Positions 1,653 through 14,425 of a DNA stretch of 62,421 nucleotides are shown here, piece by piece. The DNA is from a virus (Duplodnaviria; Caudoviricetes): the IMG/VR virus record IMGVR_UViG_3300033508_000392, positions 1 to 62,421 of that record. One strand, given 5' to 3'. The notes below the pieces were generated by a model, which saw nothing but the letters and a program-made list of their open reading frames with translations, did no database searches and had not been told where the DNA came from. The position numbers and the translations under genes were made by a program. Numbering within the stretch: the first letter of the stretch is position 1; each line of letters opens with the position of its first letter.

Positions 1653-2546
1653 ATGAGTAAAAAATTAACCATGGAAAAGTTTCTCTCTAAATCTAAAGAA
1701 GTGCATGGAGATGTATATAATTACTCTTTAGTTGAATATATAAATTCTGCAACTAAAATAAAAATCATATGTTCTATACATGGAGTGTTTGAACAAACAC
1801 CCAACAATCATATATCAAAAAGTTATAAATGTCCTGAGTGTAAACGCCTTGGTATAAATGAATTTATAGAGAGATCAAAAGAATGGCATGGAAATAAATA
1901 TGACTACTCTTTAGTTGATTATAAAAACAAAAAAACTAAAGTTAAAATTATATGTCCTAAACATGATATATTTGAACAAGCTCCAGAAAATCATTATGCT
2001 GGTAGTGGTTGTCCGAAGTGTAATCCTATGTCATTACAAACAACAAAAGAATTTATTCTAAAAGCTAATAAAATCCATAAATATAGATATGATTATTCTT
2101 TAGTTGATTATAAAGGCATTTATAATAAGATTATAATAATATGTTCCAAACATAAAGAATTTTTACAAACACCAGCATCACATTTGCGCGGCTCTGGATG
2201 TCCACACTGCAAAGAATCCAAGGGTGAAATAAAGGTTACAAAATGGTTGAAGAAGCACAATATAGTTTTCAAGAAACAACACACATTCAAAGATTGTAAA
2301 AATAAACGACTATTGCCGTTTGACTTCTATATACCTTATTTAAATATTGTCATAGAATATGATGGCAAACAACATTTTGAGGTAGTAGAGGCTTGGGGTG
2401 GTGAAGATAGATTATCATATATTAAAAAGAATAATGAGATAAAAACTCTATATTGTAAAAACAAGGGAATAAAACTTATAAGAATAAAATATGATGATGT
2501 AGCAGAAAGCATACTTAATGGTATTGAAGAAATAGGAGGCAGTTAA
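1653..2546 (+). CDS. Free-standing homing-endonuclease-like protein (repeated YDYSLV..C..HG..H..G.GCP.C zinc modules plus C-terminal Vsr/PD-(D/E)xK-like domain)
   Basis: Three Cys/His repeats; LPFDFYIP...IEYDGKQH; paralog of 44612..45499. Confidence 0.8.
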   Translation: MSKKLTMEKFLSKSKEVHGDVYNYSLVEYINSATKIKIICSIHGVFEQTPNNHISKSYKCPECKRLGINEFIERSKEWHGNKYDYSLVDYKNKKTKVKIICPKHDIFEQAPENHYAGSGCPKCNPMSLQTTKEFILKANKIHKYRYDYSLVDYKGIYNKIIIICSKHKEFLQTPASHLRGSGCPHCKESKGEIKVTKWLKKHNIVFKKQHTFKDCKNKRLLPFDFYIPYLNIVIEYDGKQHFEVVEAWGGEDRLSYIKKNNEIKTLYCKNKGIKLIRIKYDDVAESILNGIEEIGGS

Positions 2547-2855
2547 ATGTCGCAGGCTGATGGTGATGTCAAATCAATTGATAAGACGAAATATGGATTA
2601 TATGAACCTGGTTTTTATCATGTCGTATTAATTAACGATAATTTTACACCTATGGACTTCGTTGTTGAAGTTCTTATAAAGATTTATTGTAAGTCAGAGG
2701 CAGATGCTATGAAGTTGATGATGAAAGTTCACAATGAAGGCCAAGCTATTGCTGGCACCTATGTTGAGGATATTGCTCTAACAAAGAGTGAATTGACCAA
2801 CAAGATTGCCAAAGATAATGGTTTCCCACTCAAAACAAAAGTACAACCCGCTTAA
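2547..2855 (+). CDS. clpS: ATP-dependent Clp protease adaptor ClpS
   Basis: YHVVLINDNFTPMDFVVEVL, MMKVHNEG, GFPL motifs; directly upstream of clpA. Confidence 0.95.
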   Translation: MSQADGDVKSIDKTKYGLYEPGFYHVVLINDNFTPMDFVVEVLIKIYCKSEADAMKLMMKVHNEGQAIAGTYVEDIALTKSELTNKIAKDNGFPLKTKVQPA

Positions 2856-2872: not shown

Positions 2873-3586
2873 ATGGAACTTAGCAGAGAATTGAGGATGA
2901 TTATGAGCCATGCGTTTAACAAAGCACGTGAGCTCAAGAATGAGTATCTGATGCCCGAACATATTCTTTACTCCATTGTTAAGAATGATGAGGTCATTGT
3001 TGATAAGCTAAATATTGAACAAGACGATATTTTGGAAGATTTAACTGCCTTCTTCCAGACTAAAATCCCTCCTGCCGTTGATGGTCGCCAACCCGTTGAG
3101 TCTTTGGGCTTCAACCAGGTTATTCAAGCTTCTGTACAGCAGGTTGAGAACTCTTCACGTCAGACTGTGGAGGTTGGAGATATTCTTATTGCTATTTTTA
3201 ACGCGGGCGGTCAGTCTCGCTACATTCTTCAGAAGTATGGTATTGAGAAGGAAGACCTTCTTGAGGCTGTCACTGATACCCAAAGGGGCGATATGGAAAC
3301 CGAACAGCCTGAAGCACAGCAGCCTGGTGCTGCTCCTCGCAAGAAGAAGTCTATGCTTGAGGAGTATGCTGTCGAACTTGTCCAGCAGGCTCGTGATGGT
3401 AAGCTTGACCCCATTATCGGCCGTGACGCAGAGATTGAGCGTACTGTTCAAATCCTTTGCCGTAAGAAGAAAAACAACCCCATCCACGTCGGCGAAGCTG
3501 GCGTAGGTAAGTGTTTGGATGGAGATGAAAAAATTAAAATTCTTGTATCTGATGAATTGTACGAAGAATTAAAGAATTTTATTTAA
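2873..3586 (+). CDS. clpA: ClpA N-terminal part (Clp-N domain and start of AAA-1) fused to a 24-aa split-intein N fragment
   Basis: LDPIIGRDAEIERTVQILCRKKKNNPIHVGEAGVGK followed by CLDGDEKIKI...stop. Confidence 0.92.
   Translation: MELSRELRMIMSHAFNKARELKNEYLMPEHILYSIVKNDEVIVDKLNIEQDDILEDLTAFFQTKIPPAVDGRQPVESLGFNQVIQASVQQVENSSRQTVEVGDILIAIFNAGGQSRYILQKYGIEKEDLLEAVTDTQRGDMETEQPEAQQPGAAPRKKKSMLEEYAVELVQQARDGKLDPIIGRDAEIERTVQILCRKKKNNPIHVGEAGVGKCLDGDEKIKILVSDELYEELKNFI
3512..3583 (+). mobile_element. Split intein N fragment (IntN, 24 aa, block A only)
   Basis: Cys1 directly after Walker A GK; CLDGDEKIKI matches intein block A. Confidence 0.88.
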
Positions 3587-4669
3587 TTTGCTTTTAATGG
3601 ATTCAGACACAATAAGTTTATTGTGTTCTATTGTGTCTGAATCCCATAATACTATGACATCAAATCCATTTTCAACAGCAAGTTTATTCTTATACTGATC
3701 AAATTTAAAAACATCATTTGCAGATTGTTTTGTAAATTTATGTTCCCAGGTATTCCACTCTTTTTCATTTAATACATTTTTATTTGGATGAATATGAGAA
3801 CCGTTATATTCGAATATTAATTTAAGTGGCAATATTGTAAAATCATAAAAATATAATCTGTCTGTGTCTTTTATAAAAAATTCTTTATTATCTTGGATGC
3901 CCATAAATAAGTTTTTTATTCCAAAAATATTAATCAATTTATAATAAAATTCTTCAAAAATAACTAAAGATTGTTTTGACGCTTTTTTCATGGATGAATT
4001 TTTTAAATTTTCTATACATGTTTTGGTGCAAGCTTTTATCCAACCATCGTATTTAATAATCACTTTATCATATCCATACTTATCTATCATTTTTTCTAAT
4101 GATATGGCTTTTGATTTGTTTAGTTCGTTCATATCATTATTTTTAGTCAACGAATTAATCCATTTAACGTTTCTTTCTTTTAACCGATTTAGTCCTTCTT
4201 TTTCACCATATTTTTTAATAATTTTGTCTCGTGAAAAAACTGACTGTCTTTCTTTAATTTTATTTGTAGCTTCTTCTTTTGTCAAACCTTTTTTAATCCA
4301 ATACCCAACTTGTGTTGATGTTCTTGCCGCATATGATTCGGGGTTTAATTTTTGTTTTTCACTGTATTTCAATCCGTTGCCTATTTGTAGCGTAGATATT
4401 TTTTCTTTAGCTTCAATTTCTGTCCAACCTCTTAGAAACCAAAATTTAACCTGCAATATTGTTGATCTTTCTGATAAAGAATAACAGAATGTTTGCAACT
4501 CTTTATACCCTATTTTTTTATTTATATTAAAAAATTCATTTAATTTGTCTAATATATTTTCTATAGATTTATATTTGAATTTTTCTTGAAGAAATTTGTC
4601 CATAAACTGGATAAAATCGTTTTTACTGTCTGATTCAAAAAGTTTTGTTTGACGGTATGTAATAAGCAT
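3569..4669 (-). CDS. Endonuclease-like protein (C-terminal Vsr/PD-(D/E)xK-like domain) lying antisense between the clpA halves
   Basis: YFYDF...IFEYNGSHIH...GFDVIVLWDSD; K-rich KYG repeats; own AAGATAA motif and GGAG SD. Confidence 0.75.
   Translation of the reverse strand: MLITYRQTKLFESDSKNDFIQFMDKFLQEKFKYKSIENILDKLNEFFNINKKIGYKELQTFCYSLSERSTILQVKFWFLRGWTEIEAKEKISTLQIGNGLKYSEKQKLNPESYAARTSTQVGYWIKKGLTKEEATNKIKERQSVFSRDKIIKKYGEKEGLNRLKERNVKWINSLTKNNDMNELNKSKAISLEKMIDKYGYDKVIIKYDGWIKACTKTCIENLKNSSMKKASKQSLVIFEEFYYKLINIFGIKNLFMGIQDNKEFFIKDTDRLYFYDFTILPLKLIFEYNGSHIHPNKNVLNEKEWNTWEHKFTKQSANDVFKFDQYKNKLAVENGFDVIVLWDSDTIEHNKLIVSESIKSKLNKIL
3599..3644. repeat. Perfect 16-bp inverted repeat, 14-nt loop
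   Basis: GGATTCAGACACAATA (3599-3614) / TATTGTGTCTGAATCC (3629-3644). Confidence 0.9.
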
Positions 4670-4785
4670 ATATACTCCTGGTTTAGGTTTTTTCCTACTC
4701 CAGTTTATCTTTTAATAAATTTTAAGTTTGTGTTGTTTTCTTGAAAGATAATAGCATATATTATATAGATATTGAGGAGGAATAA

Positions 4786-5196
4786 ATGAAAGAGGTTGAC
4801 ATTAAGATTGGAAAGCTTTTTACTTTCCTTGAAAGCAAAGGCTATCAGTTTAAAGTGGATGAAGGTGTAGAGTCCAACTTAGATATTAAAATCCAAGATG
4901 AAAATTCTAATTGGCAAAATGTTCCCGCTTTTATCAAAAAGAAAGATGTTGTCCATGAAATTGGTCTAAATGATTTTGTATTCAAGTGTGGTTCAAAACA
5001 TAAAATTTGTGTAAATAAAAATACAAAAGAATGTAAATTTGCTTCTGATATCAAAGTTGGAGATGTTTTTGATTATGATGATATCATTTATACGGTTAAG
5101 TTCAACAATGTTGTCGGAGAAAATTTTGTATATGACATCCAGATTGATTCTGAAAATCATCTATACAAAACACCAAATGGGTTGATTAATCACAAT
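4786..5196 (+). mobile_element. Split intein C fragment (IntC) containing blocks B, F and G
   Basis: CGSKH (block-B-like His), VYDIQI (block F), terminal HN followed by Thr+1; more AT-rich than the extein. Confidence 0.88.
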
Positions 5197-6828
5197 ACGG
5201 CGATTACTGAAGGTTTGGCTCAGCGTATTGCTGCTGGTACCGTTCCTGAGATTTTGGCTGACTATGAAATCTTCTCCCTTGATATGGGCGGTATGCTTGC
5301 TGGTACCAAGTACCGTGGTGACTTTGAAGAGAGGATTAAGAAGATTGTTAAGGAAGTTGAACAGAAGGAAAAGGCCATCCTCTTCATTGATGAAATTCAT
5401 AACATCATTGGTGCTGGTCAAACTGGTCAGGGAACTATGGATGCCTCAAATATCTTGAAACCCTCCCTCTCCTCCGGAAGACTCCGTGTTATCGGTTCAA
5501 CTACCTTTGATGAGTATAAGAAACATGTTGAGAAGGATGCTGCTCTTGCTCGCCGCTTCCAGAAGATTGACATCGATGAACCTTCTGAGGAAGAGACTTT
5601 TGAAATCCTCAAGGGATTGCAGAAGAATTACGAAGAGTACCACAATGTCCAGTATACTGAAGATGCCCTCCGTTCTATTGCAAAGCTCTCTCACCTCTAT
5701 ATCAATGACCGTCACCTCCCTGATAAGGCTATTGACGTTATGGACGAAATCGGTGCCCTTCTCCGTATGCGTAACTTCAAGAAGAATGAAAAGGATCCCA
5801 TCTCTCTCCTCGTAACTGAGGCTGATGTTGAGAACGTTGTCTCTAAGATTGCCAAAATCCCTGAGAAGACCGTCTCCACCGACGAGACTGCTAAGCTTGG
5901 TACTCTTGCTGCTGATTTGAAGGCTCAGGTCTTTGGTCAGTCGGAAGCTATTGACCAGATTGTTCAGGCAATCAAACGCTCGCGTGCCGGTTTCCGCAAG
6001 AAGGATAAACCTGTGGCAAACATCCTCTTTGCTGGTAAGACTGGTGTTGGTAAAACCCACCTTGTCCGCAAGTTGGCTGAGACTATGGGTCTGACCCTCC
6101 ACCGCTTCGATATGTCTGAGTACCAGGAGAAGCACACTGTTGCTAAGTTGGTTGGTGCTCCTGCTGGTTATGTTGGTTATGAGGAAGGTGGTCTCTTGGT
6201 TGACGCCATCCGTAAGGAACCTCACTCCATCCTCCTCTTAGATGAGATTGAAAAGGCTCACTCTGACATCTATAACATCCTGTTGCAGGTTATGGATTAC
6301 GCCACCCTTACTGATAACCAAGGTAAGAAGGCCGACTTCCGTAATTGTATCATCATCATGACTTCTAATGCTGGTGCCCGCAATATCGGTACTAAGCCTC
6401 TTGGATTTGGAAGTGTTGCTCGCGGAGGTGAAGCTGTGGACACTGCTGTTGAGAAGTTCTTCTCACCTGAGTTCCGTAACCGTCTTGATAAGGTTGTGAC
6501 TTTCAATGACCTCACTTCTGAGGTTATCCGTGAGGTTGTTAAGGCTGAGATTAAGGAATTTGAAGGCATGCTCACCGAGAAGGGAGTTTCCCTCTCCATC
6601 ACCGATGCTGCTATCGACTGGTTTGTTAAGAACGGTTATAGCGACAAGTTTGGTGCTCGTCCTATCGCCCGCTTGGTTGACGATAAGATTAAGGACATCT
6701 TTGTTGATGCTGTTCTCTTCGGTGATTTGAAAAGTGGTGGTAGTGCAGAGATTGATGCTATTGATGGTGAGATTAAGGTTAATACCTTGAATCTCAATCT
6801 TGGCAATGCCCTAGCTCTTTCCGTATAG
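4786..6828 (+). CDS. clpA: Split-intein C fragment (137 aa) fused to the rest of ClpA (AAA-1 remainder plus AAA-2)
   Basis: ...VYDIQIDSENHLYKTPNGLINHN then TAITEGLAQRI; AGTKYRGDFEER, LFIDEIH, GKTGVGKT, LLLDEIEKAH, PEFRNRLD; SD GAGGAGG. Confidence 0.95.
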   Translation: MKEVDIKIGKLFTFLESKGYQFKVDEGVESNLDIKIQDENSNWQNVPAFIKKKDVVHEIGLNDFVFKCGSKHKICVNKNTKECKFASDIKVGDVFDYDDIIYTVKFNNVVGENFVYDIQIDSENHLYKTPNGLINHNTAITEGLAQRIAAGTVPEILADYEIFSLDMGGMLAGTKYRGDFEERIKKIVKEVEQKEKAILFIDEIHNIIGAGQTGQGTMDASNILKPSLSSGRLRVIGSTTFDEYKKHVEKDAALARRFQKIDIDEPSEEETFEILKGLQKNYEEYHNVQYTEDALRSIAKLSHLYINDRHLPDKAIDVMDEIGALLRMRNFKKNEKDPISLLVTEADVENVVSKIAKIPEKTVSTDETAKLGTLAADLKAQVFGQSEAIDQIVQAIKRSRAGFRKKDKPVANILFAGKTGVGKTHLVRKLAETMGLTLHRFDMSEYQEKHTVAKLVGAPAGYVGYEEGGLLVDAIRKEPHSILLLDEIEKAHSDIYNILLQVMDYATLTDNQGKKADFRNCIIIMTSNAGARNIGTKPLGFGSVARGGEAVDTAVEKFFSPEFRNRLDKVVTFNDLTSEVIREVVKAEIKEFEGMLTEKGVSLSITDAAIDWFVKNGYSDKFGARPIARLVDDKIKDIFVDAVLFGDLKSGGSAEIDAIDGEIKVNTLNLNLGNALALSV

Positions 6829-6849: not shown

Positions 6850-7149
6850 ATGAAATATGAACTAACTAATATTGGTGTTAAAATTGCTATTAAGGTGGCA
6901 AATAATATTGTTAAAAATGATAGTCAAAGTATTATTGCGGCCTTTAGATATGAAGGTGTTAATGATGCAGATGGGTCAATGGCTGCATATGCTGGGGCTA
7001 TTATGGAAATAGTAAACAGTGGACTTCTTTCTATTCTTAATAAAGCAGTACGATCACCAGGATATGCTAAAAATTTAACAATTGCTATTGCAGATATTGA
7101 TTTTGATGTTCGAGCCAGTGATGGAGAAAAACGCGAAAAAGATGATTAA
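6850..7149 (+). CDS. Hypothetical protein
   Basis: AAGGAG SD; ends just before a terminator. Confidence 0.7.
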   Translation: MKYELTNIGVKIAIKVANNIVKNDSQSIIAAFRYEGVNDADGSMAAYAGAIMEIVNSGLLSILNKAVRSPGYAKNLTIAIADIDFDVRASDGEKREKDD

Positions 7150-7161
7150 AACAATTTAGAT

Positions 7162-7190
7162 AAAAACCCACATAAAATGTGGGTTTTTTT
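7162..7190 (+). terminator. Intrinsic terminator
   Basis: AAAAACCCACAT-AAA-ATGTGGG followed by T7. Confidence 0.85.
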
Positions 7191-7211
7191 ATTTGTCGTA
7201 AAGATAATATC

Positions 7212-7487
7212 ATGAGATTTGAAAATGTCAAGATTGGTCAAATATTTAAACTTAATACAGGTTATATTTCCTTTCTTATCATAGACGGAAAGATGGGTGA
7301 GTACATTGATACAACCTATATTGCAATTAAAAATACTGATATGTTTGTTACAATAGCAGAGGGTGTTATGTATAATGAAGAAGATTGGAGAAATGAAGTT
7401 ATATCAAATAAACCCTCTTTTATAGATGATGAGCACGGACAAGAGATTATATTAAAACTTTTTAGTAGAGAGATAGATTGGGCATGA
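7212..7487 (+). CDS. Hypothetical protein
   Basis: Start reassigned to ATG 7212 (downstream of the terminator, 4 nt after AAGATAA). Confidence 0.65.
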   Translation: MRFENVKIGQIFKLNTGYISFLIIDGKMGEYIDTTYIAIKNTDMFVTIAEGVMYNEEDWRNEVISNKPSFIDDEHGQEIILKLFSREIDWA

Positions 7488-7765
7488 AAAATCTATTGAA
7501 GATGCTTTTTGAAGAATATCGTTATACTTGGCTCTATAGAGAAGTACATGGTTATAAGGGAAGAGTGTATTTTAAATTTGATCATATTGATAGTAATGCT
7601 GTCGAAATAGTCATGTCTCGTTACTATCCAAAAACAAAAAAGTGGGAGATGAATGTTTGTTCAACCATTGAGTATCTGGGTAAGTTATATATAGAAGAAG
7701 ATGAAGAAATAATAAGAGATTTAGAAGCAAAACACGCTATTTTCCTCCTCACCAAGGAAAGATAG
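7484..7765 (+). CDS. Hypothetical protein
   Basis: ATGA overlap with previous gene. Confidence 0.65.
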   Translation: MKNLLKMLFEEYRYTWLYREVHGYKGRVYFKFDHIDSNAVEIVMSRYYPKTKKWEMNVCSTIEYLGKLYIEEDEEIIRDLEAKHAIFLLTKER

Positions 7766-7768
7766 TAT

Positions 7769-8326
7769 ATGGATAATAAATACTCAACATTAAATAAAAT
7801 ATGGAACCCTGGTGAAATACCTGCCAAGAAATCTCAATTCAACTTGCTTGGTTTTAAACTTCCTACAATTGACAACAAAAATTTTTCATATAGAGTAATA
7901 TATGGTTTATTTGGTGAAACTCCTGAAAGAAGTGCGATAACACAAAAACTCGGTGGTAAACAAAAACCTGAAATGTTTGATATATATGGCGCAATTGAGT
8001 ACGCTGCCAATATGAACTCTGAATATAGAGACAATTCTCTTCCCAGATGTATTGTACCGAATTTTTCTAATTTTTATTTGGTATTTTATAGTTCAGATAT
8101 TGGTGAAGTCTTACTAAATATATCAGAAGAAAAACAATTTGAGTTTGCAAAAAAAATATTAGACGGTTATAAATCACACAGCAGTGGATATATTTCAATT
8201 GTTGGTATTCAAAAATTATATGGTAAAATTTGTAAAAAAGATAAACTGAAGATAGAGAACTGTAAACTATTTATCAGTTTTTGCATACCAGGAACAGAAA
8301 AACTGTTGATGATATATGAATACTGA
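7769..8326 (+). CDS. Hypothetical protein
   Basis: 185-aa ORF in tiled operon. Confidence 0.65.
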   Translation: MDNKYSTLNKIWNPGEIPAKKSQFNLLGFKLPTIDNKNFSYRVIYGLFGETPERSAITQKLGGKQKPEMFDIYGAIEYAANMNSEYRDNSLPRCIVPNFSNFYLVFYSSDIGEVLLNISEEKQFEFAKKILDGYKSHSSGYISIVGIQKLYGKICKKDKLKIENCKLFISFCIPGTEKLLMIYEY

Positions 8327-8339
8327 TTAAAGGAACAAA

Positions 8340-8672
8340 ATGAAAGATTTAATCTTCAAGTTGGTGTTTGAAAATTATGGTAAAGAGTTTATTGGGCATA
8401 TAAGAGCACTCATCAAGGATAAGAAGGACTTTGGTATCACCATCCATGGTTTTTCGGCAAGTGGGTTTGAGTATAATAAAGATGGGACTGTTGATATTTT
8501 TTTAGAAATTGAAGATATGGAAGGGAATGGCGGATACGCTGGGTGTACATTTGATGGTGAGCTGAAAGATATATTGATTGACTTCATGTATAGTGATGGG
8601 GATCAATATCAAAAATGGGTTTATGAAAGGGGAGTAAATAATGGCAAACAAAACAATGGTGGATATAGCTGA
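8340..8672 (+). CDS. Hypothetical protein
   Basis: AAGGA SD, tiled ORF. Confidence 0.65.
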   Translation: MKDLIFKLVFENYGKEFIGHIRALIKDKKDFGITIHGFSASGFEYNKDGTVDIFLEIEDMEGNGGYAGCTFDGELKDILIDFMYSDGDQYQKWVYERGVNNGKQNNGGYS

Positions 8673-8770
8673 AGCAAAAAAATTAGCTTTTATAGCTATA
8701 ATATTATCAAGTATAGCTATAGTACTAAGTATTGGTGTTCTGGTTTTAAAATTCTTCTAAAGGAGAGTAT

Positions 8771-9082
8771 TTGAGCAAACATATAGGTAGCAATAAAGCA
8801 AGGCATAAGAATAATTCTTTACCCATCGAGAAGAGAAGTGATAAAGTTTGCATTAATTTAATAAAAGAATTATTTGCAAATGAAGTTGGCATTGTTTACG
8901 GTGTAATATCTGACTTAGTTGACTTTTCTAAAATTGACGTTGCTTTAGATGAAGGATTAATATTCAATTTTGAAGAAAGGATTGATGAGACTATTGTTCG
9001 TGACCTTAAAAAAGAGTTTGATAAATATAGTATTCAACACCATTTTGATAAGAATAAACAAAAGCTAGTTATTTATAAATAA
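8771..9082 (+). CDS. Hypothetical protein
   Basis: AGGAG SD before TTG start. Confidence 0.6.
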   Translation: MSKHIGSNKARHKNNSLPIEKRSDKVCINLIKELFANEVGIVYGVISDLVDFSKIDVALDEGLIFNFEERIDETIVRDLKKEFDKYSIQHHFDKNKQKLVIYK

Positions 9083-9093
9083 AAGGAGTTATT

Positions 9094-9342
9094 ATGAAAT
9101 TGAAGAGTATATTAAAGAACTTAAAAATTAATGAGTGGAGTTACGAGGGAACAACAAACTCAAACGGTGGTAATGTAAAGTTTTCGGTAGAACAAATAGA
9201 TTCTGATAAATTTAAGTTAACTGTTTCAGATATTGATGGAAGTTTTAAGAAAGAGTATACTGGTGATTTTCGAGAAATAATGAATAGATGCATAGCTCTA
9301 CAACCTAATAACGATACAACAATTTCACGTGAATTTCAATAA
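9094..9342 (+). CDS. Hypothetical protein with basic N-terminus ending I-N-E
   Basis: AAGGAG SD; MKLKSILKNLKINE. Confidence 0.65.
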   Translation: MKLKSILKNLKINEWSYEGTTNSNGGNVKFSVEQIDSDKFKLTVSDIDGSFKKEYTGDFREIMNRCIALQPNNDTTISREFQ

Positions 9343-9417
9343 ATTATTTACATTACAGATAAGATAAGTATTGTTATTACAAGAATATATCATTTATAAG
9401 TAAAAATTGGAGGTATT

Positions 9418-9876
9418 ATGAGATATAATATACGTGAGTTGGAAATAATAAAAAATGCGCAACTTACTGAAAAAAATAAAATTTCAACTGGATATAAATT
9501 GCATGAAGCAGTTGACCTTAGTCAGAGTGTAGAAGATATTAATAGGTACTTACTGAGATATATAAAAACTCCTGTATCAACTTCTAAAGGAATTTTTAAA
9601 ATTGCAGATATATATGTGTTTGGTTCTGAATATGAAGACGAAGACTATGATGATGAAGACTATGATGATGAAGATGAAGACGGTTTAAATGAAGAAAATA
9701 TGAGTGAATTAGCACAATACTTACACGTTAAATTTTGGAATCATGATTTTGAATCGCAATGTCTTTACGACGATGTAGTAACAGAACAAAGTCTTTCCAA
9801 ACTCTTGGGTATAAATGTAAGCTTTAGTGAAGCTGGAAGACAAGATGATCTATTTTATGATTTCGATATATCATAA
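9418..9876 (+). CDS. Acidic hypothetical protein
   Basis: GGAGG SD; D/E-rich tract encoded by 15-bp tandem repeat GAAGACTATGATGAT at 9640-9669. Confidence 0.7.
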   Translation: MRYNIRELEIIKNAQLTEKNKISTGYKLHEAVDLSQSVEDINRYLLRYIKTPVSTSKGIFKIADIYVFGSEYEDEDYDDEDYDDEDEDGLNEENMSELAQYLHVKFWNHDFESQCLYDDVVTEQSLSKLLGINVSFSEAGRQDDLFYDFDIS

Positions 9877-9913
9877 TTGAATTTATATTCTAAGAATAGG
9901 CATAATTTCCTAT

Positions 9914-10126
9914 ATGGAATTTTATAAGCGTATTGTCCCAACTCGTCTCAAGAAGTATGCCCACTACATTGTTATATTCGATGATGGTTCTTACGCTACC
10001 TATGATAAGCAGATGAAGAAAATTGCCCATTTAACCGACCGTGTGTGGAGAACAAAGATATTCTCCTCTTTTAGCCTGATGATGGATGAGAATGAATTGT
10101 GTAAATTGATGTTACTTTTAAATTAA
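9914..10126 (+). CDS. Hypothetical protein
   Basis: Downstream of GCATAAT motif; no SD. Confidence 0.6.
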   Translation: MEFYKRIVPTRLKKYAHYIVIFDDGSYATYDKQMKKIAHLTDRVWRTKIFSSFSLMMDENELCKLMLLLN

Positions 10127-10129
10127 TTA

Positions 10130-10158
10130 TTTGGAAAACACTCTTCTTAATATATAAT
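10130..10158 (+). promoter_or_regulatory. Sigma70-like promoter TTTGGA-N17-TATAAT
   Basis: One of nine copies with identical 17-nt spacing. Confidence 0.75.
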
Positions 10159-10175
10159 ACTGAGAGAGGTGAATA

Positions 10176-10418
10176 ATGAAATGTAATTTGCGTTTTCCAC
10201 TTGAAGTTGGTGCTCTGTATCGTAATCAAATTCGGCGGGCTTTTGACAAGATGAAATTTGATCTTCAGGATAGAGATCCTGAAGCCATTGTTTCTATTAC
10301 TGAATCAAAGAGTTTTTTTGATTCCATATTCTATGTTAGTATCAGCAACATTGAAGAAGGTTATGCCAGAAATATTGAAACGTCTGTCAAGGGATGGGTT
10401 GAGATACTTAATGGATAA
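10176..10418 (+). CDS. Hypothetical protein
   Basis: GAGGTG SD. Confidence 0.7.
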   Translation: MKCNLRFPLEVGALYRNQIRRAFDKMKFDLQDRDPEAIVSITESKSFFDSIFYVSISNIEEGYARNIETSVKGWVEILNG

Positions 10419-10462
10419 TATAACATTTTATAATTTTTTTATAAGATAAAAGCATAATTAAA

Positions 10463-10487
10463 GTAGAATCACACGGAGTGGTTTGAA
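10463..10487 (+). promoter_or_regulatory. NAD-gene leader hairpin motif, copy 1 (nadM-Nudix)
   Basis: GTAG-AATCAC-ACGGA-GTGGTT-TGAA. Confidence 0.75.
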
Positions 10488-10512
10488 ATAAAATGAACAA
10501 AGGAGTTCATTA

Positions 10513-11538
10513 ATGAAAGCTGACTATTGCGTCTATATTGGACGTTTCCAGCCGTTTACTAATGCCCACAAGGTAATGGTTGAACGTGCTCTTGAAGAAG
10601 CCGAGAATGTGATTATTCTGCTCGGCTCAGATAAAGCCTCCCTCTCCCTTAGAAATCCCTTCACAACTCAAGAACGCATCTCTACGGTTTACTCTGTCTT
10701 TTCTGAGAAGAGGAACAACATTGTTGTCCTTCCTATTCAGGACAGTGCTTACAACTTCACTGCTTGGATTGCCGAAGTCCAGCGTAAGATTGGTGCCATC
10801 ATACATGAAGGTGCCAGCGTCAAGTTGATTGGTCATTTTAAGGATGATACTTCCTACTACCTCAAGCACTTCCCTCAGTGGGAACTTGTTACTGAGAATT
10901 CGAAGTGTGATGGTCTCTCTGCTACCGAAATTCGTGATGAACTCTTCTCGGGTAAGAAAGTTGGTTATTGGAAGAAGTATGTCCCGGCCGAAGTTGATGC
11001 CTTCATCTGCAATTGGATGACTCAGGATACCTACCGCTTTGACAATCTTGTTGCTGAGTACAAGTACATTGCTTCCTACAAGGAACAGTGGAAGTCAGCA
11101 CCGTATGCTCCCACCTTTGTTACAACCGATGCTGTGGTCTTCTGTCTTGGTCACATCCTCCTCATTGAGCGTGGTCGCAATCCTGGTAAAGGCCAGTTCG
11201 CCCTCCCTGGTGGTTTTCTCGACCAGCACGAGACTATTGAACAGGGTTGTATCCGCGAGCTGAAGGAAGAGACGAAGATTGATGTGGCCCTGCCCATCTT
11301 GAAGTCGTCTATTAAGCAGACTCATGTCTTTGACCAGCCGTGGCGTGACCCTCGTGGAAGGACAATCACCCATGCTCATCTCCTTCAGCTCACCACTAAG
11401 GAATTGCCTACAATCACTGCCGATGATGATGCTGCCAAGGTGATGTGGATTCCTCTTGCTGAACTTGACAAGATGGAGGGTATGTTTTTCAATGACCATC
11501 TCCAGATTATTAAGTTCTTCCTTGGAAGGAGTATGTAA
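10513..11538 (+). CDS. nadM: Bifunctional NMN adenylyltransferase / Nudix ADP-ribose pyrophosphatase (NadM-Nudix)
   Basis: YIGRFQPFTNAH, RNPF, SATEIR; Nudix box GGFLDQHETIEQGCIRELKEET; RDPRGRTITHA. Confidence 0.93.
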   Translation: MKADYCVYIGRFQPFTNAHKVMVERALEEAENVIILLGSDKASLSLRNPFTTQERISTVYSVFSEKRNNIVVLPIQDSAYNFTAWIAEVQRKIGAIIHEGASVKLIGHFKDDTSYYLKHFPQWELVTENSKCDGLSATEIRDELFSGKKVGYWKKYVPAEVDAFICNWMTQDTYRFDNLVAEYKYIASYKEQWKSAPYAPTFVTTDAVVFCLGHILLIERGRNPGKGQFALPGGFLDQHETIEQGCIRELKEETKIDVALPILKSSIKQTHVFDQPWRDPRGRTITHAHLLQLTTKELPTITADDDAAKVMWIPLAELDKMEGMFFNDHLQIIKFFLGRSM

Positions 11539-11792
11539 TGATATCGGAAGTACTTCAGCAAGTTAGGTTTAAACTCCATAAAAAGTGTGTTGATGGTGTC
11601 TTGGTTGTTAATTGTACTGTTGATGAGGCGATCGAAGTTATAAGAAAAGCACTTTTAGAACAAATTGCTATTCGTCCTAATATTATTCGGGAGTTGCGAC
11701 ATGGTGATTTACCTTATGATGGTAGTTTAGGAGATTTCCGTACTCAACAACAGGAAGGGGTGAATTATGTTCGATTCGCTAATTCAGAATAG
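11538..11792 (+). CDS. Hypothetical protein
   Basis: TAATG coupling to nadM. Confidence 0.6.
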   Translation: MISEVLQQVRFKLHKKCVDGVLVVNCTVDEAIEVIRKALLEQIAIRPNIIRELRHGDLPYDGSLGDFRTQQQEGVNYVRFANSE

Positions 11793-12036
11793 AGATAATG
11801 ACGAAGCTAAGTTGGCTTTATTGTATGGAACCCTTGACCCAGAAAAATACATAAATAATTTCATTGATCAAAATGGGGTTGATGTGGAACATATAGAGAA
11901 AGTTCTTGAAGAGTATAAGAACTGCGGTATTGTCAAAGATTATTCAATGGGTATAAAAACAAATAGTAGGGGTATAATAGAGTTGCAGATTGATATTGAA
12001 AGAGAAAAAAGGAGTTTAATTCTTTATGAAGGTTAA
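11767..12036 (+). CDS. Hypothetical protein
   Basis: Tiled ORF; N-terminal EAKLALL motif. Confidence 0.6.
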   Translation: MFDSLIQNRDNDEAKLALLYGTLDPEKYINNFIDQNGVDVEHIEKVLEEYKNCGIVKDYSMGIKTNSRGIIELQIDIEREKRSLILYEG

Positions 12037-12379
12037 TTTGGATAAAATTATCCGCCAGGGTAATCAGAAGGAAATGCAACAGCTCTTTGACGACATATCA
12101 AAGAAGATGTGGGATACCTTTAATGAGGATAATTTCTTCTCCATATCCTCCTTCATCCTTGAGTTGCTGGTCAATTCTTGGAAGAAGGATTTGGTTGCCA
12201 TCAGTCTTAAAAACGATGGTTTCTTTGATGACTTTATTCTTCATATGAAGGAGATCCTTGGGAGGGATATTGAAGAGTTGGGTGAAGAAGTAAGAGAGAA
12301 GGAGAGGGAGAAAGACCCTTTGTATATGGCAGCTAAACAGGCAGATATTGCTGCCGGTATTGCACCAAATAAAAAATGA
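12026..12379 (+). CDS. Hypothetical protein
   Basis: AGGAG SD, tiled ORF. Confidence 0.65.
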   Translation: MKVNLDKIIRQGNQKEMQQLFDDISKKMWDTFNEDNFFSISSFILELLVNSWKKDLVAISLKNDGFFDDFILHMKEILGRDIEELGEEVREKEREKDPLYMAAKQADIAAGIAPNKK

Positions 12380-12380
12380 A

Positions 12381-12406
12381 ATAGATTCTCAATGGAGAGA
12401 ATTGAA
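12381..12406 (+). promoter_or_regulatory. NAD-gene leader hairpin motif, copy 2 (pnuC-nadR)
   Basis: ATAG-ATTCTC-AATGGA-GAGAAT-TGAA. Confidence 0.75.
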
Positions 12407-12423
12407 ATTATAGGAGGTCTAAG

Positions 12424-13209
12424 ATGACTAATGTTCTGAATAGTGTTCACGGAGTGCTTACCGAATTCTGGGTGAATACGGTGGCTTATTTTAAGGGAGC
12501 TGAAAAAGTTAAGCTCACCAATCTTTTTGATGGATGGACTTTGTGGCAGAAGTCGTGGATTATCATTTCCACCCTTGCCATCACTATTGCATCCATCATG
12601 ACTTGGGATCCTACCAATGTCAGTGTTTCTATCATTTCGTTGATTGCCAGTATCTCGGGTATCTGGTGTGTTGTTCTTGTCGCCAAGGGCAAAATCTCCA
12701 ACTTCTTCTGGGGGACTATCAACGTCATCTTCTACGCCATTGCCGCTTACAACTGGCAAGTTTATGGTGACTTTATGCTCAACATCTTCTACTACCTCCC
12801 AATGCAGTTCTGGGGATGGTATATCTGGACTAAGCCTGAATTTAAGGCTGGTGCCGATGTTGTTAAGACTAAGCTTTTGAGTTGGAAGGGTTGGATTGTA
12901 CTTGTTGTTGTGGCAGCTGTAGCAACTGTTGGTTATGGCTTCTATCTCCAGAGTATCAACAACGTCAAACCTTTCATTGACAGTGCTTTGGTTGTTTGTT
13001 CCATCCTTGCTCAATTTCTTATGACTAAACGTTATGCAGAACAGTGGCTTTTGTGGATTGTGGTTGATGTACTTGGTGTCTACATCTGGTCGGTTGTTGT
13101 CTTCCAGAATGGTGGTCTTGCTAATATCGGTCTTCTTATTATGTTTTTTATGTGGACCTGCAATGCAATTTATGGTTACATCAACTGGTTGAAGATGAGT
13201 AAGAATTGA
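12424..13209 (+). CDS. pnuC: Nicotinamide riboside transporter PnuC
   Basis: Multi-pass membrane protein; CVVLVAKGKISNFFWG, MQFWGWYIW, AQFLMTKRYAEQWLLWIVVD, YGYINW. Confidence 0.93.
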   Translation: MTNVLNSVHGVLTEFWVNTVAYFKGAEKVKLTNLFDGWTLWQKSWIIISTLAITIASIMTWDPTNVSVSIISLIASISGIWCVVLVAKGKISNFFWGTINVIFYAIAAYNWQVYGDFMLNIFYYLPMQFWGWYIWTKPEFKAGADVVKTKLLSWKGWIVLVVVAAVATVGYGFYLQSINNVKPFIDSALVVCSILAQFLMTKRYAEQWLLWIVVDVLGVYIWSVVVFQNGGLANIGLLIMFFMWTCNAIYGYINWLKMSKN

Positions 13210-13415
13210 TCGGTAAGTACATTGCAGATACCGGGTTTTATGATGGCCTTGTGGTTGGTAAAGAATACCAATTACAGGATTGTGAGGATGCGACCCGGTA
13301 TCTTGTATTGAAGAACGAACTTGGTGCAACATCCACCTTGCTCAAAGACAAGTTTGTCAATGTGAAAGACGAATTGCTTGTTGCTGCCGAGAAGGCAGCA
13401 GGAGGAGAAATATGA
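13206..13415 (+). CDS. Hypothetical protein
   Basis: Fills the pnuC-nadR gap with overlapping stop/start. Confidence 0.6.
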   Translation: MIGKYIADTGFYDGLVVGKEYQLQDCEDATRYLVLKNELGATSTLLKDKFVNVKDELLVAAEKAAGGEI

Positions 13416-14425
13416 CTGTAGGATTTCTTGGTGGAAAGTTTCTTCCATTTCATCAGGGTCACTTGTATATGATTCTTCGAGCTTCAACCATGGTTGATAA
13501 GCTCTATGTTGTACTCACATCCTCCCCCAATCGGGACAAGGAACTATGTGACCGAGATGGTATCAAGTACATGCCAGCTGAGGTCAGAATGTCTTGGATT
13601 GGTGCATCTGTTGCCGACCTTGAGAATATTGAAGTTATCAACATTGTTGATGACCAGTGGAATTACAATTATGACTGGGAGGAAGGATCAAACAAAATCC
13701 GGAATGCCATCCCTGAGAAGCTGACCCACGTCTTCTCGAGTGAACCAGAGTATGACAAGTACTTTAAAGCTTACTATCCTGGAACGGAACATGTTGTTAT
13801 TGATGAAGGAAGGAATGCTGTTTCCATCTCTGCAACTGAATTGAGAAAGGATTTGTATAAGCATTGGGATATGCTCCCTGTAACTGTTCGTCCCTTCTTT
13901 GTTAAGAAGGTTGTTCTTATCGGGACAGAGAGTTGTGGTAAGTCAACTTTGACTAAGAAGTTGGCTAAGTTTTATAATACCAACTTTGTACACGAGGTTG
14001 GTAAGGATGACTACTGTTACAAGTACAAAAATCTCCTTACTCCGCAGATGTTCGTCTCCACTGCTATGGATCATTTTCGCCTTATCGAGAAACGAATGGA
14101 AGTTGCAAATAAGGTTGTCTTCATCGATACTGAGGCTGTTGTTACCCAGTTTTATCTTGAGATTTATACTGGTCAAAAATCGGCTTTAATCGATGAAGTT
14201 ATCAAATTACAAAATTTTGATCTCATCATCTATATGGAACCTGATGTTAAGTGGGTGGATGACGGAACTCGTTTCCTCGGTACCGATGAACAGAGGAAGG
14301 ATGGTAATGCTAAGTTGAAAAAGATGTTTGCCGACTATGGGCTTGAGTATATCTCTGTTACTGGATCCTATGAAGAGAGATTTGCTAAAGCTCGTGCCCT
14401 GGTTGATGAGATGATTGAGGTATGA
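13412..14425 (+). CDS. nadR: NadR-type NMN adenylyltransferase / ribosylnicotinamide kinase (no HTH domain)
   Basis: GGKFLPFHQGH, VFSSE, ISATELR; P-loop GTESCGKST; WVDDGTR. Confidence 0.93.
   Translation: MTVGFLGGKFLPFHQGHLYMILRASTMVDKLYVVLTSSPNRDKELCDRDGIKYMPAEVRMSWIGASVADLENIEVINIVDDQWNYNYDWEEGSNKIRNAIPEKLTHVFSSEPEYDKYFKAYYPGTEHVVIDEGRNAVSISATELRKDLYKHWDMLPVTVRPFFVKKVVLIGTESCGKSTLTKKLAKFYNTNFVHEVGKDDYCYKYKNLLTPQMFVSTAMDHFRLIEKRMEVANKVVFIDTEAVVTQFYLEIYTGQKSALIDEVIKLQNFDLIIYMEPDVKWVDDGTRFLGTDEQRKDGNAKLKKMFADYGLEYISVTGSYEERFAKARALVDEMIEV

Follow-up and report, generated by a model that had tools for sequence, protein, structure and literature searches.

How could a phage obtain a complete ClpA unfoldase from a gene that is broken in the Walker A motif of its first ATPase domain (D1)? 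The question is raised by the clpA locus at positions 2873-6828 of the virus record IMGVR_UViG_3300033508_000392 (IMG/VR; Duplodnaviria, Caudoviricetes), a stretch of 62,421 bases which is called the window in what follows; its completeness is estimated by CheckV at 29%, and its base composition is AT-rich (GC 0.30-0.43). Two open reading frames (ORFs) on the same strand carry the two parts of clpA, each with extra residues at the break, and a third gene lies between them on the opposite strand. Taken together, sequence comparisons and structure models make it very probable that this is a fractured clpA with an atypically split intein and a homing-type nuclease, from which a ClpA of 756 residues would be formed by protein trans-splicing. 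Elements of this kind are already established, and the locus is of value for the catalogue and as a possible tool, with no new principle involved.

The break in clpA

ORF1 ends in GEAGVGK, the Walker A sequence of D1 up to its lysine, which is followed by CLDGDEKIKILVSDELYEELKNFI and a stop codon, and residues 1-137 of ORF2 end in NGLINHN, after which comes TAITEGLAQRI. When the 24 residues at the end of ORF1 and the 137 residues at the head of ORF2 are taken out (237-24 and 680-137), 213 + 543 = 756 residues are left. On phrog_4871, a PHROG family of phage ATP-dependent proteases with 764 positions, ORF1 residues 3-214 match positions 8-227 and ORF2 residues 138-667 match positions 227-756; the pieces are colinear and meet at position 227, and the 24 + 137 extra residues find no match within the family. 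Pfam recognises Clp_N in ORF1, and AAA_lid_9, AAA_2 (E 3.7e-58) and ClpB_D2-small in ORF2. The gene annotated as clpA in Pectobacterium phage CBB is uninterrupted and encodes 765 aa; in its product Lys243 corresponds to Lys213 of ORF1 and Thr244, the Thr of GEPGVGKT, pairs with Thr138 of ORF2; from this Thr onwards the ClpA part of ORF2 (C-extein) is 44% identical to CBB ClpA residues 244-763. Pfam, phrog_4871 and the colinearity with CBB all give the domain order of ClpA, with the N domain, D1 and its lid, the second ATPase domain (D2) and D2-small, and the length of 756 residues alone suggests that a middle domain of the ClpB type is absent. A PLGFGS stretch in D2 presumably resembles the ClpP-docking tripeptide.

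The ORFs, their coordinates and the sum of 756 residues had already been given in a first-pass annotation of the window, and all are present in the sequence as it described them. ORF2 also has its own Shine-Dalgarno sequence, as had been claimed: a GAGGAGG ribosome-binding site is found at 4774-4780, 5 nt upstream of the ATG. A consensus scan gave one sigma-70-like match, as a pattern match only, at 4649-4676 on the plus strand (TTGACG, 16 nt, TATACT), which starts within the nuclease gene and only reaches with its end into the spacer ahead of ORF2. By blastn against 50,697 phage records, no record covered at least 80% of the locus, and the matches were short pieces, about 66-69% identical, in clpA genes of jumbo phages and in other records. 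An assembly chimera was considered and rejected, since independent contigs, described below, show the layout again.

Hint fold and catalytic residues of the extra sequences

The 24 residues of ORF1 and the 137 residues of ORF2 are referred to here as the N- and C-terminal intein pieces, IntN and IntC. A HMMER scan of 1.84 billion cluster representatives (clusters at 50% identity), with IntC and the following (+1) Thr as query, gave a family of 123 proteins at E<=0.001, of which 44 reach E<=1e-10. AlphaFold2, given an alignment with 64 family members, modelled IntC together with 10 extein residues, with a mean predicted local distance difference test score (pLDDT) of 93.9 and a predicted template modelling score (pTM) of 0.85. 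Foldseek of this model against the Protein Data Bank (PDB) gave 39 matches at E<=0.001, and those listed are inteins or bacterial intein-like Hint domains, with the Pho RadA intein at the top (3.1e-6), followed by gp41-1, Mxe GyrA, Cat and VidaL; the superposition on VidaL has template modelling (TM) scores of 0.70/0.71 and a root-mean-square deviation (rmsd) of 2.8. Among PDB sequences, a profile built from 18 family members finds VidaL first (E 4.6e-10), and then Pho RadA (9.3e-8), gp41-1 (1.6e-7), Spl DnaX, PolB16 (2.7e-6) and Cat (4.9e-6). In four relatives (P0011, P0067, P0088 and P0117) the region homologous to IntC gives sub-threshold matches to Pfam Intein_splicing. The first-pass annotation had proposed that a split intein interrupts the Walker A motif of D1 and that ClpA is rejoined, and had made this depend on a Hint fold; the fold was looked for and found, with solved inteins as its matches, and the core of the proposal holds on the computational tests that were available.

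The residues expected to carry out splicing are conserved in the family. Cys1 of IntN (Cys214 of ORF1, right after the Walker A Lys) is invariant in 9/9 aligned N pieces, split and contiguous; Lys52, His72 and Asn137 of IntC are invariant in 65/65 sequences, and His125 and His136 are kept in at least 90%. The +1 residue is Thr in 100 of the 123 clusters, Ser in 21, Cys in 1 and unread in 1. The last three intein residues, readable in 122 members, are HHN in 115, NHN, as in the window, in 4 and SHN in 3. Block B reads CGSKH at ORF2 residues 68-72, as had been noted at first pass; its His72 is kept in 65/65 although the Thr of the usual TxxH is missing family-wide, and in the profile alignment block B of VidaL is CAFNH, which is of the same style.

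IntN consists of 12 residues of strand and a 12-residue tail, and all motifs but block A lie within IntC, in agreement with the earlier description of the intein as atypically split. The IntC model starts with coil (residues 1-7) and continues with a helix (8-17), and in the contiguous relative P0052, which has no linker, the order across the junction is strand, turn, strand and then an IGxxF helix; because of these two observations the split is tentatively placed before helix alpha-1, in the S1 region, an approximate assignment made from the model and not residue by residue. The pairing of the two pieces was modelled with IntC and the last 41 residues of ORF1, using custom alignments, so the following calibration counts are only a rough guide. 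The complex scored 0.60 and the best of 3 controls 0.00, with a verdict of 'weak support'; the pass mark is reached by 116/157 solved complexes and by 2/215 mismatched pairs, and of those 157 only 18 score 0.60 or less, as do both of the mismatched pairs above the pass mark. Between runs, at least 85% of the contacts agree, and the pLDDT of the partner is at least 61. The pass may reflect memory of, or likeness to, known structures, because split-intein complexes have already been solved.

The source of VidaL is a helicase or recombinase gene in a lake metagenome, and it and its relatives were reportedly introduced by Thiel in 2014 and by Burton et al. in 2020. Among solved structures VidaL (PDB 6vgv) is the best profile match, with profile positions 14-137 aligned to chain positions 20-142, and it shares with the window intein a short IntN, the dependence on Cys (predicted for the window) and, probably, a split near the N terminus before alpha-1 (PMC13014065, PMC11185735). 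Its structural identity to the window IntC is only about 16%, and its IntN has 16 aa, compared with 24 aa in the window. By ungapped extrapolation of the profile alignment, the window IntC begins about 10 residues earlier in the fold than that of VidaL, which would place the second strand in the window IntC. As described in PMC13014065, the S1 split region is that of VidaL and PolB16, while S2, after alpha-1, is that of AceL-TerL and GOS-TerL. The latter two and Cat are also naturally split, with an IntN of 25-37 aa, have a phage P-loop ATPase, the large terminase, as host and are used in peptide ligation (PMC11766414, PMC13014065), and Cat (6dsl) is among both the structural and the profile matches of the window family; by contrast, they are split at S2 and use Cys at +1, whereas the window IntC retains alpha-1 (helix 8-17) and is followed by Thr. 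The Pho RadA intein (PDB 4e2u, 2lqm) and the mycobacteriophage intein TerL1-a have the same insertion site as the window, between Lys and Thr of Walker A, and the same Thr as +1 nucleophile, but they are in one piece and have no free-standing nuclease gene.

These comparisons change what is special about the locus. The first-pass annotation had presented the short IntN, the Thr at +1 and the block B sequence as making the intein a candidate new orthogonal tool. The 24 residues fall inside the range of 15-37 aa reported for the natural IntN of atypically split inteins (PMC13014065); Thr at +1 is instead the rule of the family (Thr or Ser in 121/123 clusters), at a Lys/Thr site that has been called the 'classic' P-loop intein insertion (PMC5050341); and CGSKH is the family norm, of which the active VidaL has its own version. 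Its remark on an unusual host keeps part of its force: a protein unfoldase lies outside the DNA-metabolism hosts, but P-loop ATPases are the favoured hosts of inteins, and the supplementary table of PMC4760082, in the available text, already has two bacterial Clp entries, a ClpA and a ClpB with one intein each.

Naturally split inteins with an N piece small enough for peptide synthesis are few. Those with an IntN of at most 25 aa include VidaL (16), PolB16 (15), AceL-TerL (25) and the engineered split M86 (11), and Cat has 30 (PMC13014065, PMC11185735); short-IntN split inteins are wanted for protein semisynthesis and live-cell protein editing, as the same two sources describe. To these the locus adds a candidate 24-aa Cys1/Thr+1 split intein.

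The predicted antisense nuclease and the proposed route to a joined ClpA

The first-pass annotation had placed an antisense endonuclease between the two halves, and a modelled Vsr/EDxHD-type fold in the 366-aa protein agrees with this. The protein has 49 homologues of similar length, 2 of which are named 'very-short-patch-repair endonuclease' by their source. In an alignment of 38 members S231, D276, E287 and G290 are invariant, and H294, K327 and W342 nearly so. The AlphaFold2 model (pLDDT 87.7) is helical in its N-terminal region and carries a Vsr/EDxHD-like nuclease domain at the C terminus, at residues about 229-363. With this domain, VIA-align, which is independent of Foldseek, gave 3hrl as the top match (Z 9.9), then the catalytic domain of I-Bth0305I (3r3p; Z 9.6, rmsd 3.0, 95 residues aligned) and Vsr (1cw0; Z 9.2, rmsd 3.4, 112 aligned), the rows beneath having Z 8.4 or less; only the C-terminal nuclease domain was matched. 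By its fold, the antisense protein is a predicted homing endonuclease of the Vsr-like/EDxHD type. Pfam has no family for the 366-aa protein itself, and the matches of its homologues to DUF559 (5/38, best E 0.002) and MTES_1575 (2/38) were set aside as too weak alone; phmmer of the protein against PDB sequences gave one chance match (E 1.8). Residues about 75-215 contain repeated helical modules, FWFLRGWTEIEAKEKIS and YWIKKGLTKEEATNKIK, followed by IIKKYGEKEG and MIDKYGYDKV, which are possibly DNA-binding repeats.

I-Bth0305I, the prototype of the EDxHD group characterised by Taylor et al. (PMC3239194), shares the fold of the window nuclease over 95 of its 98 residues and, like it, has an N-terminal non-catalytic region ahead of the nuclease domain. 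The spacing from Asp to His is 17 in I-Bth0305I (Asp196-His213) and 18 in the window nuclease, where an acidic residue stands at 11. The former is encoded by a group I intron, whereas the latter is encoded on the opposite strand between intein halves, and a match between the two sequences is undetectable. The whole arrangement is that of the fractured genes found in loci of phage origin by Dassa, London, Stoddard, Schueler-Furman and Pietrokovski in 2009 (PMC2677866), where, as in the window, the halves keep their original order and orientation, form independent ORFs and have a free-standing nuclease gene between them. The Vsr-like nuclease family occurs in 12 of those loci, and the terminase locus among them has an unusual break, with a long C part holding all N motifs except N1. 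As far as the available text goes, the hosts there are enzymes of DNA synthesis, repair and packaging, while that of the window is a protein unfoldase; the words 'Clp', 'P-loop' and 'Walker' are absent from the text of that paper. As judged from sequence and models, the locus is a fractured gene of the type described by Dassa and co-workers, with an EDxHD-like nuclease and a VidaL-related, P-loop-homing intein. In the literature searched, to which the founding papers on the VidaL type (2014, 2020) did not belong, a split or fractured clpA was not found. The combination of intein and homing nuclease that fractures genes would reach a phage motor of protein quality control, in its most conserved ATPase loop, and not DNA-metabolism genes alone.

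The mechanism that we propose starts with a cassette, consisting of IntN, the nuclease gene on the opposite strand and IntC with its own ribosome-binding site, that would have entered clpA at the boundary between the codons of Lys213 and Thr. The products of the two ORFs would be ClpA(1-213)-IntN and IntC-ClpA(214-756). IntN would bring Cys1 and the first beta strand, which are missing from the otherwise nearly complete Hint domain of IntC, and since it would complete that domain, the two proteins are proposed to find each other. Splicing of class 1 would then proceed through an N-S acyl shift at Cys1, transesterification to the hydroxyl of Thr+1, cyclisation of Asn137 and an O-N shift, and the outcome would be an intact P-loop, GVGK-T, within a 756-residue ClpA. 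The nuclease would act as the homing engine, cutting intein-free clpA alleles at the Lys213/Thr site during co-infection, with the cassette being copied in.

A number of observations count against this mechanism. Pfam at E<=10 finds no Hint or intein family in the window IntC or IntN; structure and family profiles were therefore used, and the link of the window copy to inteins rests on them. In block B the Thr of TxxH is replaced (C-G-S-K-H, with G69/S70), and the intein ends in NHN where 115 of the 122 readable members have HHN; these two departures may affect the rate or yield of splicing. The complex prediction passed weakly. As to the nuclease, Foldseek of the whole model against the PDB found nothing at E<=0.001, the best match being 1vsr at 0.085, and the 38-member profile found nothing relevant among PDB sequences; D276, E287 and H294 are conserved, but the first Glu of EDxHD was not mapped and its last Asp not located, and for the latter reason the protein is a putative member of the EDxHD group. 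No RNA run with the locus is listed, and, because a gene on the opposite strand separates ORF1 from ORF2, balanced expression of the halves is not assured.

Among other explanations, the one that survives best, improbable as we hold it to be, is that IntN and IntC associate non-covalently with no ligation, and that ClpA works, or half works, as two chains. It has a precedent in a fragmented phage ribonucleotide reductase, which reportedly assembles without splicing, by means of interaction domains that stem from a mobile element (PMC3045599), and the missing block B Thr and the NHN in place of the usual HHN would suit it; however, a domain of 161 residues would stay wedged between the Lys and the Thr of the D1 P-loop. 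Moreover, the residues for splicing are all kept, with Cys1 in 9/9, H72 and N137 in 65/65 and a +1 nucleophile in 122/123, and VidaL, the block B of which is similar, has a reported splicing half-life of about 1 min (PMC13014065).

Compared with trans-splicing, it is also quite improbable, slightly more so than docking, that clpA was killed by a selfish cassette and that its pieces are decaying remnants with no function. The need for ClpA is not demonstrable in a 29%-complete fragment without clpP, and in a relative with two cassettes (L006, see below) the nuclease gene of the D1 site is already broken into two ORFs. Both extein ORFs of the window are, however, of full length, free of stops and matched end to end by the ClpA profile, the exteins are about 70% identical to those of the relatives as against about 60% for the intein, and the ribosome-binding site of ORF2 is strong; the layout in two or three pieces is also kept across diverged contigs, and 16/123 family clusters are in hosts of the ClpA type. 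Very improbable, finally, is a locus limited to side reactions, in which C- or N-terminal cleavage frees an N-domain protein and a D1-D2 fragment lacking the P-loop with no ligation: substantial C-cleavage is known in atypically split inteins (up to 25% for PolB16; PMC13014065), and the window departs from the family consensus beside the penultimate His, but the products would be left without an intact Walker A of D1, and Asn cyclisation alone would have no need of the conserved Cys1 and +1 nucleophile.

Relatives, hosts and genomic context

A search of viral contigs with the single sequence of ORF2 residues 1-205 found no relative, whereas alignment-based scans of viral contigs did recover relatives. 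The layout with a split intein at D1 is repeated in the independent contigs P0002, P0003 and L006, at an intein identity of 59-62% (IntC of P0002 62%, of P0003 59%). P0002 and P0003 stop at the Walker A motif of D2, where GKTGVGK is followed by a second IntN of 26 residues (CLH...). L006, a locus on a viral contig of 53,938 bases, has clpA in three pieces at 8227-13618, with a cassette in each Walker A and the gene order endonuclease, clpS, ClpA N piece, broken antisense nuclease, middle piece, second antisense nuclease and C piece (Table 1). The relatives thus carry a second cassette of split intein and nuclease at the position that corresponds to the uninterrupted D2 Walker A of the window; no second copy of IntC was found in the 62-kb record by an IntC hidden Markov model on six-frame ORFs and a genome search. 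The 3' ends of IntN and of the antisense nuclease gene overlap tail to tail by 18 nt at 3569-3586 in the window, and likewise in L006 at 8920-8937 (18 nt) and 11334-11356 (23 nt). In the window the overlap takes in the codons for the final five residues of IntN. In each of the three cases the end of the IntN tail and that of the nuclease therefore constrain each other.

In 105 of the 123 family members the domain lies at the N terminus, 104 of these beginning with Met, and these are the split forms; in the other 18 it is internal. The extein family can be recognised in 56/123, and all 56 are P-loop nucleoside triphosphatases (NTPases), in which the Pfam match resumes just past Walker A. The hosts comprise ClpA-type proteins (16 clusters, 5 in D1 and 11 in D2), SF2 helicases (13), RecA (6), AAA_5 (5), PhoH (4), ClpX-like proteins, clamp loaders and other AAA proteins (3 each), DnaB (2) and ABC proteins (1). 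From a family tree of 124 rows and 140 columns, made by a quick search and with 63/120 inner branches unresolved, only two small supported clades and a count of label clustering were used. By the Shimodaira-Hasegawa-like approximate likelihood ratio test (SH-aLRT), the window intein forms a clade with the two other close D1 versions (96), and in a different part of the tree the D2 intein of L006 groups with a second D2 version (99). The host labels cluster, with 42 changes on the tree compared with a mean of 56.2 after shuffling, and 0/200 shuffles were as low.

Contiguous forms of the intein exist in both ClpA sites, P0042 being a one-piece intein in the D1 site and P0071 one in the D2 site. 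In 7 of the 8 contiguous members the full sequence of which was read, GxGK is followed by C..., a short linker and a sequence like the start of IntC. In P0043 the intein begins after GGL, and SGKGKS comes after the intein.

What distinguishes the locus is its unfoldase host, the size of the split family and, in its relatives, the occurrence of two diverged members within a single ClpA. One may tentatively read these data jointly, and as a whole this reading is rather less likely to hold than to fail, as a large family of VidaL-related, P-loop-homing split inteins (123 clusters, 105 of them split), with the window intein as one lineage, that is not described in the literature searched. Its members might move among unrelated NTPases via the shared GxxGxGK|T/S sequence, the hosts being D1 and D2 of ClpA, ClpX-like proteins, RecA/UvsX, DnaB, SF2 helicases, PhoH, MoxR-like proteins and clamp loaders. 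In the same reading, the D1 and D2 inteins of the L006 type could be a naturally orthogonal pair that assembles a three-piece AAA+ motor with neither mis-joining nor a circularised middle piece, and the 12-residue IntN tail beyond the first strand could serve as the address on which the specificity of each pair depends. Fast or mutually orthogonal pairs, some of which coexist in one protein, might be found among the roughly one hundred natural split relatives.

Table 1. Features of the clpA locus and its surroundings in the window, and pieces of the three-part clpA of L006 (positions of the latter are those of its own contig).
Feature	Positions	Strand	Basis
Endonuclease gene, free-standing	1653-2546	+	phrog_559 'HNH endonuclease' (E 2.3e-80); Pfam DUF4379 and DUF723 zinc-finger repeats
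clpS adaptor gene	2547-2855	+	Pfam ClpS (E 1.9e-26); phrog_27368
ORF1, 237 aa: ClpA N-extein and IntN	2873-3586	+	ORF list
ClpA N-extein, residues 1-213: N domain and start of D1 to Walker A Lys (GEAGVGK)	2873-3511	+	Pfam Clp_N; phrog_4871
IntN, 24 residues CLDGDEKIKILV then tail SDELYEELKNFI, and stop codon	3512-3586	+	ORF list; conservation of Cys1
Antisense nuclease gene, 366 aa, free-standing, homing-type (predicted)	3569-4669	-	Homologues; nuclease fold of the model
Spacer flanked by the divergent starts of the nuclease gene and of ORF2	4670-4785	.	Sequence
ORF2, 680 aa: IntC and ClpA C-extein	4786-6828	+	ORF list
IntC, 137 residues; block B His72, block F His125, block G His136-Asn137	4786-5196	+	Model, profiles, conservation
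ClpA C-extein, 543 residues from Thr138: rest of D1, lid, D2, D2-small	5197-6828	+	Pfam; phrog_4871
D2 Walker A GKTGVGKT, uninterrupted	6034-6057	+	Alignment with relatives
L006 ClpA N piece, 236 aa			
L006 antisense nuclease of the D1 site, split into two ORFs	8920-9534 and 9531-9881		
L006 middle piece, 451 aa: IntC at its head, second IntN of 26 aa at its tail			
L006 antisense nuclease of the D2 site, intact, 322 aa	11334-12302		
L006 C piece, 395 aa: IntC and remainder of D2			

Some members of the family may have hosts of other kinds. P0052 (1023 aa) is a contiguous member inserted after ...KGIK in a tape-measure-like protein with long coiled regions and a Gly run; no Pfam P-loop family is found in it, and it may be a non-NTPase host or have a diverged P-loop. 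On a 386-kb contig (L003/L007, 10001-11389) an IntC of 36% identity heads a 462-aa protein without a Pfam family; in the 10 kb upstream, no ORF with a matching IntN at its end was picked up by a pattern search, and the N half may lie elsewhere or have escaped the pattern. Seven proteins headed by IntC (P0057, P0109, P0110, P0111, P0116, P0119 and P0125) also hold, at their end or inside, the N part of a second intein, matching Pfam Intein_splicing positions about 10-95, which suggests that their host genes were broken more than once by inteins of different types.

Only two DNA sequencing runs contain small shares of the locus (0.08 and 0.05 of the sampled words). The pieces recovered from both are short, and most come from other organisms, because they are less than 90% alike and lie within conserved parts of ClpA. 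In run X1, which is labelled as a microbial mat metagenome, two short contigs are identical to the window at 3501-3651 and 5043-5278; they span the IntN/nuclease overlap and the junction of IntC and extein, and this mat may contain, at low depth, the phage of the window or one very close to it. In run X2, a joint of low likeness from 3511 to 5293 (side 21), as would come from an uninterrupted clpA in another organism, fell under the trust limits and was not used.

No clpP was found in the 62-kb record, which says little because the record is only 29% complete. The clpS gene directly 5' of the fractured clpA is part of the context and lies outside the mobile cassette. Immediately 5' of clpS, the free-standing endonuclease gene holds three copies of a KYDYSL...KIKIICP.HG.FEQ repeat, and a homologue of this endonuclease is found in L006 at 6968-7852, in the equivalent position upstream of clpS.

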